NCBI GenBank assembly: GCA_018650645.1
Contig: JABIFP010000020.1
Span: forward strand, 8,385-72,384
DNA: 64,000 nt
Origin: Candidatus Magasanikiibacteriota bacterium
Lineage (GTDB): Bacteria; Patescibacteriota; Patescibacteriia; Magasanikbacterales; UBA922
Reading direction: 5' to 3'
The position numbers and the translations under genes were made by a program. The notes under the pieces are model-generated. The model made no database searches. It worked only from the letters and a program-made list of their open reading frames with translations, and was not told the origin of the DNA. This document shows positions 3,925-63,708 of the stretch, one piece after another. The number at the start of each line of letters is the position of its first letter. Positions within the stretch are counted from its first letter, which is position 1.

Positions 3925-5406
3925 TTACGCTAGCTTTTCCCACTCTTCTGCCCCCGCCACAAACTCACTCTTAATTTGCTCAAAGTATGCACTTGCACTT
4001 TCATAATCATTTTGCACTTTTCCATCTAAAATTGCTTCTTCAATAGCTTTTTTAATTTTTCCAATTGTTGGACCTGGCTTTAACCCACACTCTTCAATAA
4101 TTTCTTCTCCGCGTACAGGCGATTGGAATGCTCGGAGTTCATCTTTTTCTCTAATTTCTGCAATACGTTTTTCTAACTCATCATAATTTTTGAGTCGTTT
4201 TACTTTTTTCTTTTGATTCCCCGTTGTAATATCTGCGCGGCACAGTGTCAGTAAGTCATCCAAAGAATCACCTTGGTTTACAAACAGACGGCGAACAGCA
4301 CTATCTGTTACGCCATTATCCATTAATGCGATTGGCTGCAAATGCCATCGCACCAATTCACTTACAAAATGCGTATCATTTTTACTAAACCGAAGTTTAC
4401 GCATAATGTCTTTACACATTTTACGCCCTAAATGTTCATGCATATCAAACGTCCAACCTCTTCCCTCTGCAAACTTTTTTGTTGGTGGTTTTGCAATATC
4501 ATGCATAAGCCCCGCAAAACAAAGAAGTGCGTTTCCTCCCTGCTGTGCTATACCATCTACTACCGCAAAGGTGTGTGACAGATTATCTTTATGAGTGTAT
4601 CCAGCAACTTCTTCTACACCTGCTAGCTCTGTCACTTCTGGCAAACACTGATCCATGAGTTTTGCACCATGCATAAGCCATAGCCCAATTGACGGTACTT
4701 TTGCACCCATAAGCTTCATAAGTTCCTCCTGCACACGTTCTGCAGACACAATAGAAAGCCGTTCACGATTTTTATGCATTGAAAGCAGTACTGATTCTTC
4801 AATTGAAAAATCGAGCTGCGCTGCAAAGCGAGCCGCGCGAAGCATGCGCAGTGGATCGTCAAAAAATGTCTCATCCGGATCAAGCGGTGTAATAAGTTTT
4901 TTGTTTATAATTGCTTCCTTACCATTATACGGATCAACCACGTCACCTAGTGACCCATCTGGATGTACTTTCTGCGCCATTGCATTACACGTAAAATCTC
5001 TTCGTGAAAGATCTTGCTCGATTGTCGCAGGTTCTACTACAGGCTTCCGTGATTCACTTCTATACGATTCACTTCGGGCGCCTGCAAATTCCACTTCAAA
5101 AAGTACCTTTGTTTTTTCTCCTTCTGCCTCTTCTATATATACGTATCTTGCTGTATCGAAGTCTTCAAACTCGATGAGTCTTCCCTGCTCTTCTCCTTCA
5201 TACGCCAAATATGCCCTTGCAAATTCAAGTCCACTGCCGGCTACCACTACATCAATATCTTTCTTTTGATTTCTGCCCATAATGGCATCTCGAACAAATC
5301 CACCAACAACATACGCCTCAGTTTGCTGAGCGCTACTAATTTTTCCGATTGTGCTTAAAATATGTGCGTCATTCATAGTGCTGCGACTGTACACTAAAAT
5401 AGCCAA
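3925..5406 (-). CDS. cca: tRNA nucleotidyltransferase (CCA-adding) / poly(A) polymerase family protein with HD domain
   Basis: GGFVRD...DIDV nucleotidyltransferase head, an RRDFTCNAMA motif and a C-terminal HD (HDIAKP) domain. The true start may be the internal Met at about 5376, because the annotated 5' end overlaps uppP. Confidence 0.8.
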   Translation of the reverse strand: MAILVYSRSTMNDAHILSTIGKISSAQQTEAYVVGGFVRDAIMGRNQKKDIDVVVAGSGLEFARAYLAYEGEEQGRLIEFEDFDTARYVYIEEAEGEKTKVLFEVEFAGARSESYRSESRKPVVEPATIEQDLSRRDFTCNAMAQKVHPDGSLGDVVDPYNGKEAIINKKLITPLDPDETFFDDPLRMLRAARFAAQLDFSIEESVLLSMHKNRERLSIVSAERVQEELMKLMGAKVPSIGLWLMHGAKLMDQCLPEVTELAGVEEVAGYTHKDNLSHTFAVVDGIAQQGGNALLCFAGLMHDIAKPPTKKFAEGRGWTFDMHEHLGRKMCKDIMRKLRFSKNDTHFVSELVRWHLQPIALMDNGVTDSAVRRLFVNQGDSLDDLLTLCRADITTGNQKKKVKRLKNYDELEKRIAEIREKDELRAFQSPVRGEEIIEECGLKPGPTIGKIKKAIEEAILDGKVQNDYESASAYFEQIKSEFVAGAEEWEKLA

Positions 5407-33212: not shown

Positions 33213-34562
33213 CTATGCTGCCAAATCTGTATCCGTAATACCAAGTCTACTTAGTAACGCGAGATGTTCTGGATTAGACGGGTCGTATTTACCCACACTA
33301 AACTGCATAGCAGCATCAGGATCTTCACCTACTAAATTCCAAATATCGATATTCCCTTCTCTATAAATCATATCTTTTGTAAAACACACTCCTGGAGTTT
33401 TGCCGTCCGTACCTCTAAATACTCGAACAGATCTATTATAGGCAAGCGTATCTGCCTTGCCCGATGCCGCAGCAGGATCCATTCCGCTCAATAATTTTTC
33501 TAAGTACATCTGGGCACGTATAATCTCATATACTTCTCTAAATCCTCGTTTCTGTCCATCAACACCTCTCGCGAGTGCAATGCCCAGATGTCCTGCCATT
33601 CCAGCAAAATCTTGGACATCTCCCGTTACCGCTTGCTCACGCATGGTAGCAACGCCCTCTTCCCCGCGCTCATATCTATCAAGTCCAAGCCCCAAAAGCT
33701 GTAACTTACTGTGTTCTCCATTCACACGCCGCGCAACGTGCGTTCCAATTTCATGTACAATAAGTTGCTGCAATTTCTTTGCGGTCATGCTTCTTCCCTC
33801 TGGAACAACTACTTTTTTTTCTTCTTGATTTACACTAATGCTCGTTTTGCCCGTGTCTACCACTTCCACAGTCCATCCGGTTAGCTCTAAAGAACTCATA
33901 GCCTCCCTAAATACCTCCTGAATTTGACCAGCCTCATACTGTTCTACCTTTGTATCAACAGCCGCCATAGCCTCTGAAAATGCATCCAGCGTTTGCACCT
34001 GCATAGCATCAACGATATTTTGTGTAGGAAGCGCAGCTACATCATGTGCTGAACCTTCCGGAAGAATCTCAATCAATTGCTGCGCTGCCGCAGCGATATC
34101 GGGGTTATCAGAAGAAAGTGCATCATGAGCTTTCTTACTTTCTGTTGCCAGCGTATATCCAAAAACCTGTGCAGAAGGTTCACCATATACAAAAGAGGTG
34201 TATTTCGAAAAGCGCTTCATATTCCCATTCAAGGCAGCCTTCATCATCCGTACTTCTGCAATTTTTTCGTTTATCTTCCATCTGTACGCTTGCTTTACAT
34301 CGGGATTTGGTTCTTTATTTAAAATATCTTTTTTCAATGCGAGTAGGTCATCTTCCTTAGTCTGTAAATCACCCATATTCAATTTAGGGTAATCAAGTGC
34401 GGGTGCATCAATTTCCCCATCCATAAATGCACGCTTCTGCTCTGCTCTGGCTTCTCTATCTCCAGAGAAATATTCGTATGCCTGAAAAGATCCAGCCCCC
34501 TCAAATCGACCATACCACTGTGCATCAAGTGGCTCTTGTTCTCTTCTTCTCATGCCTTCCAT
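33213..34562 (-). CDS. DUF1704/QEGLA-motif-like putative metallo-hydrolase
   Basis: HEIGTHVARR plus ...GEEGVATMREQ, resembling the flavohemoglobin-expression-modulating QEGLA family. The assignment is tentative. Confidence 0.35.
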   Translation of the reverse strand: MEGMRRREQEPLDAQWYGRFEGAGSFQAYEYFSGDREARAEQKRAFMDGEIDAPALDYPKLNMGDLQTKEDDLLALKKDILNKEPNPDVKQAYRWKINEKIAEVRMMKAALNGNMKRFSKYTSFVYGEPSAQVFGYTLATESKKAHDALSSDNPDIAAAAQQLIEILPEGSAHDVAALPTQNIVDAMQVQTLDAFSEAMAAVDTKVEQYEAGQIQEVFREAMSSLELTGWTVEVVDTGKTSISVNQEEKKVVVPEGRSMTAKKLQQLIVHEIGTHVARRVNGEHSKLQLLGLGLDRYERGEEGVATMREQAVTGDVQDFAGMAGHLGIALARGVDGQKRGFREVYEIIRAQMYLEKLLSGMDPAAASGKADTLAYNRSVRVFRGTDGKTPGVCFTKDMIYREGNIDIWNLVGEDPDAAMQFSVGKYDPSNPEHLALLSRLGITDTDLAA

Positions 34563-57544: not shown

Positions 57545-58615
57545 CTACAGCGAATTAGCCACTACCTCTGGCATCTGCTCCACCCGCTCCACCCAAAACG
57601 TCTCTCTACCCAAAATCTGCCCAAACGACGTCTCTACCTGTACTCGATACTTCCCTGCTCGCGGAGATCTATCAAAAGAATACCCGCGGAACCCTTCTTT
57701 TCTGCCTCCATATATAGGATACGTGATTTTCCCATCAGAAACCCAGCTATCAGTCTGCTCATTCCACCTATACCAATGATGCACAATATCTGCTGTCAGC
57801 TTCCCCGGCGCAACTATTGAGGTAAATACATATACTGGACCATTTTGCACATGCACAGTCTTTTTAAATGAAAGCTTCTGCATGAATGACTGCTTTTCTT
57901 CTTGGACGAGGTATGCATTCCCCTGCCGCTCGACGCTGTGATACACGCCGCTATGATATACAGAAAGCGGCACTGGAGGAATCGCATTAGCTAAATACAG
58001 CCCTCCCATACATAAAAATAATATTCCCATTATATACACGATCCCATACTGCACCTGCGCAACTCGCGGTGATCTGTTTCTGAGTAGCCAAATGATAAGC
58101 CACACAAATGCCATGGCGAGCGCACCCGAAACAAAAAACCATGCAGGGTGAATCGATCCAACAAAAAATGGTAGCGCAACTGCTAAACTTAAAAAAACTG
58201 CAATATAGAGTAATGGAAAATGAACAAGTGGCCAAACATACGCATGTGCCAATCGCTCGTTTGATACCATAAGCAGCACTACTAACAGTAACAGCGGCCA
58301 TGAAGCAGAAAGTGCGCTACTAAACGAGTAAAATATAAGTGCCCCACTCAGCAGTGCACCAAAACTAAATTGTAAAAAAAATGGAACCGCTCGTCTGAGC
58401 TTCCCTAGCCGTCCTTCTTCAGCAACCAAATGGATAATACTGATAGCGAGAACAACGATACCTACATGTGCTGTGAGCACCCAAAGTGCACTCGTTAACG
58501 ACACTGTGCGAAATGTAATGATATCAACAATAAACCCAAGCACAAGCATGGCCGGTAAATAATACCGCTCATTTTTTTTGTAATATGCTATGGATTTTTG
58601 GATGGCTTGTTTCAT
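57545..58615 (-). CDS. polytopic membrane protein with a C-terminal soluble beta-domain
   Basis: About 9 TM helices followed by a roughly 140-aa extracytoplasmic domain. No motif recognized. Confidence 0.45.
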   Translation of the reverse strand: MKQAIQKSIAYYKKNERYYLPAMLVLGFIVDIITFRTVSLTSALWVLTAHVGIVVLAISIIHLVAEEGRLGKLRRAVPFFLQFSFGALLSGALIFYSFSSALSASWPLLLLVVLLMVSNERLAHAYVWPLVHFPLLYIAVFLSLAVALPFFVGSIHPAWFFVSGALAMAFVWLIIWLLRNRSPRVAQVQYGIVYIMGILFLCMGGLYLANAIPPVPLSVYHSGVYHSVERQGNAYLVQEEKQSFMQKLSFKKTVHVQNGPVYVFTSIVAPGKLTADIVHHWYRWNEQTDSWVSDGKITYPIYGGRKEGFRGYSFDRSPRAGKYRVQVETSFGQILGRETFWVERVEQMPEVVANSL

Positions 58616-58711
58616 GTATCTATAATAGCATAAAATGAATATTTATTTCTTACCCTTGACATGAGCACTTTTTTTTGGTACATTCTTTTGTCCGCACTAG
58701 AGCGGGCAAGG

Positions 58712-58866
58712 AGAATGCTGATGGGTATCCGATACCCGATGTGTAAGTTCTGTTTTAGCACCACCGGCAAGCATGCGGACGATTGTCCCTTGAAGCAACG
58801 GAAGCCGTCGATCTCTCTGATCCTGACGGTTGGTGCCATTAGTCTTGTCGTGATCAAGCTCGCATA
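58712..58866 (+). CDS. candidate 50-aa zinc-ribbon plus single-TM mini-protein in a GC-rich islet
   Basis: AAGGAG Shine-Dalgarno sequence, ATG, CxxC...HxxxC N-terminus, then a C-terminal TM helix, followed by a strong terminator. Confidence 0.25.
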
Positions 58867-58932
58867 GCGCTAGCTGACACGCACCTTGCACAACTCCGTA
58901 GCCGACTGCGAACACCGCGGTCGGCATTGATT

Positions 58933-58966
58933 AAAAGCACACCAGTTTCCTGGTGTGCTTTTATTT
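58933..58966. terminator. intrinsic terminator hairpin (AGCACACCAG tttc CTGGTGTGCT) with flanking A/T runs
   Basis: Perfect 10-bp stem. Part of the duplicated block next to tRNA-Thr. Confidence 0.6.
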
Positions 58967-58984
58967 GAGCCATCATCGGGAATT

Positions 58985-59131
58985 TCACGTCGGCTTTTCA
59001 GCCTCTCCAATGGGGCTTCCGCCCCCTATGGCGCTCAACTCTTCGGTTTCACTGTTACCCCCACAGCAAAAGTGGGAAACTATCGTTTCCCAAACCCTTC
59101 CCGCTTCAATCTCTTGCAGTAGAGCAAAATC
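58985..59131 (-). pseudogene. degenerate tRNA-Thr-like duplicate (pseudo-tRNA) sharing the terminal 19 nt of tRNA-Thr(GGT)
   Basis: The reverse complement retains GGCTG, CCCGATGATGGCTCA and GCGCCATA acceptor-like pieces, but the D and T stems are disrupted. It is flanked by the 54-bp duplicated block (58931-58984 and 59132-59184). Confidence 0.35.
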
Positions 59132-59167
59132 ATAAAAGCACACTTCTCGTGTGCCTTTATGATTTTG

Positions 59168-59240
59168 AGCCATCATCGGGAATTGAACCCGAGACCTCAG
59201 CCTTACCATGGCTGCGCTCTACCAACTGAGCTATGATGGC
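59168..59240 (-). tRNA. tRNA-Thr (anticodon GGT)
   Basis: Reverse complement GCCATCA-TA-GCTCAGTTGGTAGAGC-G-CAGCC-ATGGTAA-GGCTG-AGGTC-TCGGGTTCAATTCCCGA-TGATGGC-T forms a canonical cloverleaf. Confidence 0.85.
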
Positions 59241-59284
59241 TTGATGTGCCAGCAGTATACACGGCACAAGCTCACTCGTCAATG

Positions 59285-60358
59285 CTACCCCTTCTGCATT
59301 TTCACAACCTGCGTTGGGTATGCAAACTCGATTCCTTTTTTCTTTAACGCCTCATGCAGCTCCATATGAATGTGCTGCCTAATATCCATGTACACGCCAT
59401 AATCTGCCTTTTCTACATGATACACCACCTCAAAGTTTAAGCTTGATTCTCCGTACTCAAAGAAGTGAGCACGGCCAAAAGTTGCCCCTTTTGTTTTATC
59501 AATAATCACCTTTATCATTTCTGGTACTGCAGCAATTTTTGCTTTTGATGTTTCGTATATGATTCCAAAAGTAAATACATCACGTCGACGTTTCATTTTT
59601 TTGTAATTCTGCACAGTAGAAGACGTCAGTTCTCTATTTGGAATAATCAATTCTGATCCCTTTAGTGTTTGCAATCGACTCGTTTTCAGTCCAATATGCT
59701 GTACGGTTCCAGAATTTTCTCCCACAATAATAAAGTCACCAACTTGAAACGGTTTATCAATCAAGAGTGAAAACGAACTAAACAAATCGCCCAAAATATT
59801 TTGAAGCGCAAGCGCAATAGCAATACCACCTATCCCTAAGCTTGCAATAAGTGAGGTAACATTAAAGCCACTGTTTGAAAGAATCAGCAGAATTGCCATA
59901 CCCCAAAGAGCTGCAGAAATAACAACGCGAACAAATCGCAGCATGGTCCCAATTTGTGCAGCCTGCTCCTTATTTTTTTCTTGCTTCTGATGCAGGTACT
60001 GTTCTAGCGCTGCAACGAAAAAAGCATTAATGGCACGTATAATTCCATATGCAATACCTATATACGCAAACCCTTCTAACGTTCGCTCTATCCAGTGCAC
60101 AAGGGCAAGCGGTCTCATTGCTACAAGTATTGCCACACCCAAATAAAACAGTGAACTAAGCTGCCCTATCGCAGTAATAGCCATATCGTCTATATGCGTT
60201 TTTGTATGCGATGCCATTTTATGAATTCTTCCAATGACCACTTTCTTTACAATATGCACCAATAGTAGAACAATACAGAACAATCCGATTGCCTTAGCAT
60301 ATGTAAGAACATCATTACCCCAATACGTATCTGATATGAAAAATGGAGCCTGCCACAT
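59285..60358 (-). CDS. MscS-family mechanosensitive channel
   Basis: Three N-terminal TM helices and the conserved MscS beta-domain (GDFIIVGENSGTVQHIGLKTSRLQT). Confidence 0.8.
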   Translation of the reverse strand: MWQAPFFISDTYWGNDVLTYAKAIGLFCIVLLLVHIVKKVVIGRIHKMASHTKTHIDDMAITAIGQLSSLFYLGVAILVAMRPLALVHWIERTLEGFAYIGIAYGIIRAINAFFVAALEQYLHQKQEKNKEQAAQIGTMLRFVRVVISAALWGMAILLILSNSGFNVTSLIASLGIGGIAIALALQNILGDLFSSFSLLIDKPFQVGDFIIVGENSGTVQHIGLKTSRLQTLKGSELIIPNRELTSSTVQNYKKMKRRRDVFTFGIIYETSKAKIAAVPEMIKVIIDKTKGATFGRAHFFEYGESSLNFEVVYHVEKADYGVYMDIRQHIHMELHEALKKKGIEFAYPTQVVKMQKG

Positions 60359-63632: not shown

Positions 63633-63708
63633 TGGAGCCATCTGCGAGATTCGAACTCGCGACCGACGGTTTACAAAACCGTTGCTCTACCAGCTGAGCT
63701 AAGATGGC
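63633..63708 (-). tRNA. tRNA-Thr (anticodon TGT), CCA encoded
   Basis: Reverse complement GCCATCT-TA-GCTCAGCTGGTAGAGC-A-ACGGT-TTTGTAA-ACCGT-CGGTC-GCGAGTTCGAATCTCGC-AGATGGC-T-CCA. Confidence 0.85.

Follow-up and report, generated by a model that had tools for sequence, protein, structure and literature searches.

Why is a transfer RNA gene followed, 200 nt downstream and on the same strand, by an exact copy of its own 3′ end? The question is raised by tRNA-Thr(GGT) in a 64,000-nt stretch of contig JABIFP010000020.1 (positions 8,385 to 72,384; assembly GCA_018650645.1) from a Candidatus Magasanikiibacteriota bacterium; we refer to this whole stretch as the window and use its own coordinates throughout. 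A first-pass annotation of the DNA had offered two explanations for the arrangement, namely the footprint of an integrase-mediated insertion at the tRNA 3′ end or a tandem duplication in which one copy has since decayed. Altogether, our results lead us to favor, with modest confidence, a model in which the locus is what a Campbell-type insertion left behind in the 3′ part of tRNA-Thr(GGT), the insertion most likely being site-specific and the work of a tyrosine integrase. The geometry of the locus, the position of the repeat boundary in the T-loop, and comparisons with the nearest relative and with a strain variant all fit the first of the two explanations; the integrase and the body of the element are absent, and it is from the layout of the DNA that we infer the role of the enzyme.

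The repeated tRNA 3′ end and the segment it bounds

The intact tRNA-Thr(GGT) gene is on the minus strand at 59167-59240, between the gene for an MscS-type channel (59285-60358) and a DUF2914 gene (57545-58615). It is called by ARAGORN, matches the Rfam tRNA model RF00005 in Infernal at 59168-59240 (69.7 bits, with full-length coverage of the model), and folds into a cloverleaf. Upstream of it on the same strand is a sigma-70-like promoter, TTGACG-17-TATACT, at 59254-59282, which scores 10 of 12 matches in a promoter scan and is kept in the nearest relative. The gene ends without an encoded CCA (GGCTCAAA), unlike tRNA-Thr(TGT) at 63633-63708, which encodes its own CCA end, and the window contains a gene for a CCA-adding enzyme at 3925-5406 (PolyA_pol head, tRNA_NucTran2_2, and HD domains). 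In our model, tRNA-Thr(GGT) would be the regenerated target gene, on the side of the insertion that resembles the left attachment (att) site, attL. None of the three remaining tRNAs of the window has a duplicated end.

The repeat that marks the locus is the 21-nt sequence TTTGAGCCATCATCGGGAATT, present without a single difference at 59164-59184 (core copy A) and at 58964-58984 (core copy B), with a spacing of 200 nt; in the sense of the tRNA it reads AATTCCCGATGATGGCTCAAA, from 59184 to 59164 and again from 58984 to 58964. By chance, a 21-mer is expected to recur within about 1.2 kb with a probability of roughly 1e-7. Copy A, on the minus strand, comprises the 3′ half of the T-loop, the 3′ strand of the T-stem, the 3′ acceptor strand, the discriminator, and 3 nt of trailer. 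Copy B, on the same strand, has no tRNA body upstream and receives no tRNA call, and we read it as a displaced tRNA 3′ fragment resembling the right attachment site, attR. Identity begins at the AATT of the T-loop TTCAATT and ends 3 nt beyond the discriminator. The left edge is abrupt, with 21 of 21 positions identical in the core and then a background level of 20-43% in register. The first-pass annotation was right in calling the repeated tRNA end an exact copy, but of the 19 nt that it assigned to the tRNA only 17-18 nt belong there, the other 3 nt of the repeat being trailer. A search for a third, decayed copy of the core found none within 4.3 kb at up to six mismatches.

The repetition extends beyond the core into the terminator. 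Hairpin A (59125-59167), directly 3′ of the tRNA, has 19-nt arms that are 95% paired; its inner stem pairs GCACAC with GTGTGC and leads into a T-run, an A-run also being present, while hairpin B (58932-58963) is a perfect 14-bp stem (100% complementary) flanked by an A-run and a T-run and forms a bidirectional terminator. Aligned from AATT to GTGTGCTTTT, the two blocks share 45 identical positions in 56 columns, with 2 mismatches and 9 gap columns; the 54-bp block described in the first-pass annotation is indeed present twice. Both hairpins are built on the stem base AAA(G/A)GCACAC...GTGTGCTTTT and differ in the loop and upper stem, where a 4-nt indel lengthens stem A, and these differences preserve the hairpin. 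The pattern GCACAC-N3-14-GTGTGC has exactly two sites in the 64 kb (0.03 expected), both of them here. Because this motif is unique to the two copies, and because the copies can be aligned over their length, the block of about 54 nt is a real duplication, homologous throughout. Hairpin B is probably the native terminator of tRNA-Thr, common to it and to a convergent plus-strand unit described below; removal of the 200 bp between the cores would set the tRNA right before hairpin B and give two convergent genes with one bidirectional terminator.

The cores are separated by 179 nt, in which six-frame translation reveals no credible open reading frame (ORF). The first-pass annotation correctly gave a length of 147 nt (58985-59131) for the segment between the blocks. 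In its unique part, at 58985-59124, which we call the spacer, we found neither a promoter nor an ORF preceded by a ribosome-binding site, and homologues were not detected either; we read it as a residue of inserted DNA. At 52%, its GC content is above that of the window (42.6%). It contains two hairpins with GNRA loops, GGGGC-GGAA-GCCCC and GGCT-GAAA-AGCC, as well as an internal 8-bp hairpin on the minus strand at 59073-59092, TGGGAAAC-GATA-GTTTCCCA followed by CTTTTG, that appears terminator-like in a terminator scan and in folds. Fold z-scores of the 168-nt segment are modest and about equal on the two strands (-2.65 and -2.52).

According to the first-pass annotation, the segment between the blocks encloses a decayed tRNA-like copy, a claim that our searches do not bear out. 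No pseudo-tRNA was found there by ARAGORN, either by default or with -ps, and there was no second match to the Rfam tRNA model at E<=10; of the outcome predicted for such a check, one true tRNA and one low-scoring pseudogene hit, only the true tRNA materialized. Local alignment of the 147-nt segment with the 5′ part of the tRNA, or with the tRNA plus 100 nt upstream, is no better than with shuffled sequence (p=0.39-0.48), and global alignment of the 49-60 nt before copy B with the 56-nt 5′ part of the tRNA gives p=0.13-0.41 against shuffles and p=0.05-0.18 against genomic segments. The 90 nt that should match the region upstream of the tRNA under a duplication show no match to it. One of the tRNA-Thr-like pieces cited in the spacer, CCCGATGATGGC, belongs to the exact repeat itself. 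What does exist is a faint in-register likeness, with 24 of 56 positions identical at offset +1 as against 11-16 of 56 at other offsets (CCATTGGAGAGGCTGA versus CCATGGTAAGGCTGA), together with a GCCAT 49 nt upstream of core B that could pair with the ATGGC of the fragment, and part of the spacer may, judging from these letters, have a tRNA origin. Identity falls abruptly from 21/21 to background inside the T-loop, a pattern that uniform decay is unable to create. As for a tRNA pseudogene, no tRNA finder detects one, and just the last 17-18 nt match the parent tRNA. With the more permissive ARAGORN setting -ps80, a 'tRNA-Pro' is reported at 59052-59129, which we set aside as noise; it does not coincide with copy B, and the setting adds 21 matches in the 64 kb and the same in shuffled sequence. 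A transfer-messenger RNA, a permuted or split tRNA, RNase P RNA, 6S RNA, and signal recognition particle RNA were likewise considered for the GC-rich region 58690-59131 and dropped, there being no ARAGORN or Rfam support for any of them.

Relatives, a strain variant and a second locus

At least 14 contigs, obtained from different samples and projects and with different assemblers, agree at every base of the 669-nt intergenic region or of the part of it that is available, and the structure is fixed in the sampled population. Exact look-ups with four flanking or overlapping ORFs returned population copies that are all identical apart from one, the strain variant L115. The lineage is isolated: among 5.8 billion proteins and the GTDB representative genomes, no relative of the MscS protein, which NCBI files under Candidatus Magasanikbacteria, exceeds 48% identity. 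The closest syntenic genome, L112 (GCA_041294365.1), has a DUF2914 protein and a helicase that are 67% and 71% identical, respectively, and the next genomes are non-syntenic and at most 57% identical.

L112 retains the gene order TPR-helicase-AhpC-...-tRNA-Thr(GGT)-...-DUF2914 and has a single tRNA-Thr(GGT) and no repeat. Window positions 59283-59167, which comprise the tRNA and its promoter, align to L112 4431-4546 with 79% identity over 117 nt. Besides these, only the start of DUF2914 can be aligned to the window and nothing in 59166-58636; the interval between tRNA and DUF2914 in L112 (4547-6000) is unlike window 58636-59166 and contains an IMP cyclohydrolase gene and a 107-aa acidic ORF. 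From this comparison it follows that the 5′ part of the tRNA and its promoter are vertically inherited and that the downstream flank is variable.

L115 (ENA ERZ4200991, NODE_34609) is a contig of 1585 nt at 1.9x coverage that matches window 58984-57428 with one single-nucleotide polymorphism in 1557 nt. Left of the core, at its positions 1-28, the contig departs from the window and reads TCGAACCATCCTCATTTAAGATCTCCAC, so that the match breaks exactly at 58984/58985. Neither the window nor viral contigs contain this 28-mer. On the opposite strand it reads GGAG-N7-ATGAGGATGGTTCGA (GGAG-N7-ATG...), and it possibly contains a gene start directed away from the core. If the junction is real, this recombination point has a second occupant in L115; a different junction at one breakpoint is what is expected of a recombination site.

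A second case comes from a different tRNA gene. Of 25 other distinct tRNA genes in the retrieved loci, one has the same architecture, namely tRNA-Ile(GAT) at 718-790 of L020 (JAADHB010000036.1), a Patescibacteria-like metagenome-assembled genome. Here, a 69-nt block at 770-838, which runs exactly from the T-loop to the 3′ end and on through a trailer of about 48 nt, recurs at 894-963 with 65 of 69 positions identical; the repeat period is 124 nt, and the 55-nt spacer between the copies is unrelated in sequence. The repeat is absent from a relative, L035. Between L020 (718-793) and L035 (3803-3878), the tRNA-Ile gene has opposite orientations with respect to flanks that are conserved in both, a 710-nt upstream block and MscS, and this difference suggests a recombination-driven rearrangement at tRNA-Ile. 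In L020, a lineage-specific segment of about 1.2 kb follows the repeat and contains two small genes (a Cys-rich one of 152 aa and one of 189 aa).

A proposed insertion and its alternatives

In our model of the insertion, a circular DNA would have brought its own tRNA-Thr 3′ end and terminator, that is, an attP with a host-homologous block of about 54 nt, into a Patescibacteria host similar to Candidatus Magasanikbacteria, and a crossover with the chromosome would have taken place at the T-loop or just 3′ of it. This event would have regenerated a complete tRNA gene from the native promoter and 5′ part, the core, and the incoming terminator A, while the original 3′ end with the native bidirectional terminator B would have been shifted 200 nt downstream as a displaced fragment. 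The chromosome would thus be the source of the promoter, the tRNA 5′ part, copy B, and hairpin B, and the incoming DNA the source of the present tRNA 3′ end, hairpin A, and the spacer, hairpin A having arrived with the insert. We propose that the two terminators differ in ways that preserve the hairpin because each evolved under selection in a different replicon. The inserted DNA would since have been lost nearly entirely by deletion, or would never have been larger, with about 180 nt and no genes left. The outcome would be a gene-less pair of attL and attR with a remnant between them, similar to a minimal cis-mobilizable element (CIME).

Several observations weigh against this model. We found no gene for an integrase or other element function between the repeats, in the DNA up to about 6 kb away, or among 20 tested window ORFs of 229-493 aa. 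No viral contig contains the core, either of two spacer segments, or the L115 28-mer in exact form, and blastn searches of GenBank phages and PLSDB plasmids returned chance matches only, with no parent element found. In scans with shorter words, a 17-mer had just four chance matches, none of them at a tRNA and three clearly in unrelated sequence, and an 18-mer scan of metagenome contigs gave chance matches without a tRNA together with unrelated CCA-encoding tRNA-Thr(GGT) genes, and no second copy. The 200-bp insert is far smaller than any autonomous element of which we know, so that the model must suppose the loss of nearly everything but the two att sites, and must suppose it once more for L020. 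No clean empty site was recovered because the downstream region of L112 is entirely different. Finally, the L115 evidence comes from one contig of 1.9x coverage, and the core, at 21 nt, has the length of a common assembler k-mer, which makes a mis-join through the shared 21-mer possible.

The second explanation of the first-pass annotation, a local tandem duplication of tRNA-Thr with its terminator in which the copy farther downstream then decayed or was remodeled over its 5′ two-thirds, is in our view unlikely. The closeness of the blocks, their common orientation, and the inclusion of the terminator speak for it, as do the weak in-register likeness and possible GCCAT-ATGGC pairing described above and the L020 period of 124 nt, which is close to the length of a tRNA plus trailer. 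However, neither the tRNA 5′ part nor the region upstream of it aligns significantly with the spacer, no tRNA-model match or ARAGORN pseudogene ends at copy B, neutral decay that wiped out 56 nt could not have kept 21 of 21 adjacent bases (about 0.5^21), and the L115 breakpoint at the same nucleotide would go unexplained. To an uptake of DNA from a related strain with its own tRNA-Thr locus, independent of any integrase and brought about either by a small circle that entered through one RecA-dependent crossover in the conserved tRNA 3′ end and terminator or by homology-facilitated illegitimate recombination, we give a similarly low probability. The homologous block with its exact 21-nt stretch could have anchored such recombination, no integrase is detectable, the GC content of the spacer is compatible with a foreign origin, and terminator A resembles an orthologous terminator of another lineage; against this stand the left boundary in the T-loop, a canonical sublocation for integrases that recurs in L020, the reuse of one nucleotide position by the second junction in L115, which is unexpected of independent illegitimate joins, and the lack of a donor-like tRNA-Thr downstream region among the retrieved tRNA-Thr(GGT) loci.

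Rather less probable still, and in our estimation doubtful, is the possibility that the 200-bp unit and the 124-bp unit of L020 are not deletion remnants at all but belong to a class of miniature inserts, gene-less and att-bearing, whose capture or mobilization in trans takes place at the T-loops of Patescibacteria tRNA genes. If so, the downstream flanks of these tRNA genes would be a recurrent cassette-like insertion point, and the L115 junction and the downstream gene content of L112 would be other states of one hotspot. That the spacer and the tRNA-like 3′ end, with or without terminator B, form a functional small RNA, transcribed by read-through or independently and selected as a mimic of the acceptor and T-arm, we consider very unlikely. 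The conservation of the 3′ fragment at 21 of 21 positions amid differing surroundings, the neat GNRA-loop hairpins in a spacer that is GC-rich for this genome, and the fixation of the structure in the population are consistent with it, but the spacer has no promoter and is separated from the tRNA by a strong terminator, and the modest folding signal is not strand-specific. Moreover, this RNA would have no Rfam match and no homologue, and its copies, all identical, can show no covariation; the L020 spacer is unrelated, and L115 has other sequence in place of the 3′ end of the spacer. A false duplication made by assembly or sequencing has a negligible probability. Short repeats near tRNA genes can mislead assemblers, and three contigs (L006, L119, and L121) break inside the tRNA, but the two blocks differ outside the 21-mer, so that no assembler collapse or expansion is involved, and because at least 14 independent metagenome contigs have the identical structure, it is not an assembly artefact.

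Neighboring features, known systems and meaning

Hairpin B also terminates a plus-strand transcription unit (58656-58931) that is convergent with the tRNA and that emerged from a promoter scan, translation, and folding. Its strong promoter, TTGACA-17-TACATT with a TG upstream of the -10 element, is at 58656-58684, and a Shine-Dalgarno sequence, AAGGAG, at 58708-58713 is 7 nt before the ATG at 58721 of an orphan 48-codon ORF (58721-58867; MGIRYPMCKFCFSTTGKHADDCPLKQRKPSISLILTVGAISLVVIKLA) with a CxxC motif and a hydrophobic tail. The unit has a GC content of 55%, a fold z-score of -5.7, and a 3′ hairpin at about 58900-58930 that is followed by the bidirectional terminator. The 48-aa product has no Pfam match and, among 1.84 billion representative proteins, finds only itself and low-complexity Cys-rich matches, and the unit has no Rfam match. 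To judge from these features, it may encode either an orphan small membrane protein or a small RNA of no known family. A 15-nt element, AAGTGCTCATGTCAA, in the -35 region of the promoter (window 58656-58672) is kept upstream of DUF2914 in the window and in L112 (5881-5958). In this stretch L112 also has a similar hairpin, ACAAAACACACC...GGTGTGTTTTGT, 43 nt before DUF2914, and this may be the ortholog of hairpin B or a common regulatory element. Over the same region, 'hypothetical proteins' of 63, 74, 76, and 68 aa from public gene callers have been deposited at 58697-58927 (minus), 58985-59209 (minus), and 58661-58867 (plus), and their clusters hold this population only; such calls of 63-76 aa over non-coding or RNA-rich DNA are probably spurious. 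Elsewhere in the window, a 449-aa protein (33213-34562, minus strand) matches Pfam MATCAP, microtubule-associated tyrosine carboxypeptidase, with E=2.4e-27, a family name that is unusual for a bacterium.

The concept of tRNA genes as att sites, in which an insertion regenerates the tRNA gene (tDNA) and displaces a 3′ fragment, reportedly goes back to Reiter in 1989 and Williams in 2002. An intact tDNA with a downstream 3′ fragment in the same orientation is the pattern that defines tDNA-integrated islands (PMC4383910). The present locus shares this pattern with the att sites of tRNA-gene islands and prophages, having a full-length tRNA, a same-strand 3′ fragment 200 nt downstream, identity from the T-loop past the gene end, and an inner fragment boundary at the T-loop, which is, like the anticodon loop and the 3′ end, a canonical sublocation (bioRxiv 10.1101/2020.11.02.365908). 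Island repeats measure 15-221 bp, and attB often begins in the T-loop (bioRxiv 10.1101/2020.11.02.365908); the repeat found here, 21 nt exact and about 54 nt homologous, is inside this reported range. Unlike such islands, the segment measures only 200 bp from core to core, has no integrase gene or cargo inside its bounds, and has no known parent element; islands in Islander are 2-200 kb, candidates of <2 kb being discarded (PMC4383910), and the smallest islands in a Klebsiella survey are about 3.5 kb.

The locus also resembles CIMEs, which are elements that keep attL and attR and have lost their genes (PMC5704250). As in a CIME, two cores with homologous flanking arms, which we take to have been functional att sites, enclose gene-less DNA between two att-like copies of a tRNA 3′ end, beside lineage-specific DNA as in accretion arrays. 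The described CIMEs, in contrast, are kilobase-sized, have recognizable homology to integrative and conjugative or integrative and mobilizable elements, and have been shown to be excised by a helper integrase, whereas the locus described here has about 180 nt, shows no residual homology to such elements among viral contigs, phages, and plasmids, and is known from its sequence alone. With a tRNA pseudogene or tandem tRNA duplicate it has in common an exact, nearby, same-strand copy of the 3′ acceptor strand and half of the T-arm of its neighbor, but the other 56 nt are not detectably derived from a tRNA, and no tRNA finder or covariance model scores them.

The proposed scar is a feature of an already known kind in an under-studied phylum and changes no established concept. 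It explains the probably spurious 63-76-aa 'hypothetical proteins' deposited over the region, and standard island finders with size filters of >=2 kb would miss scars of this sort. The insertion that we favor would mark tRNA-Thr(GGT) as an integration hotspot in Patescibacteria, the candidate phyla radiation, where integrative elements are poorly charted.

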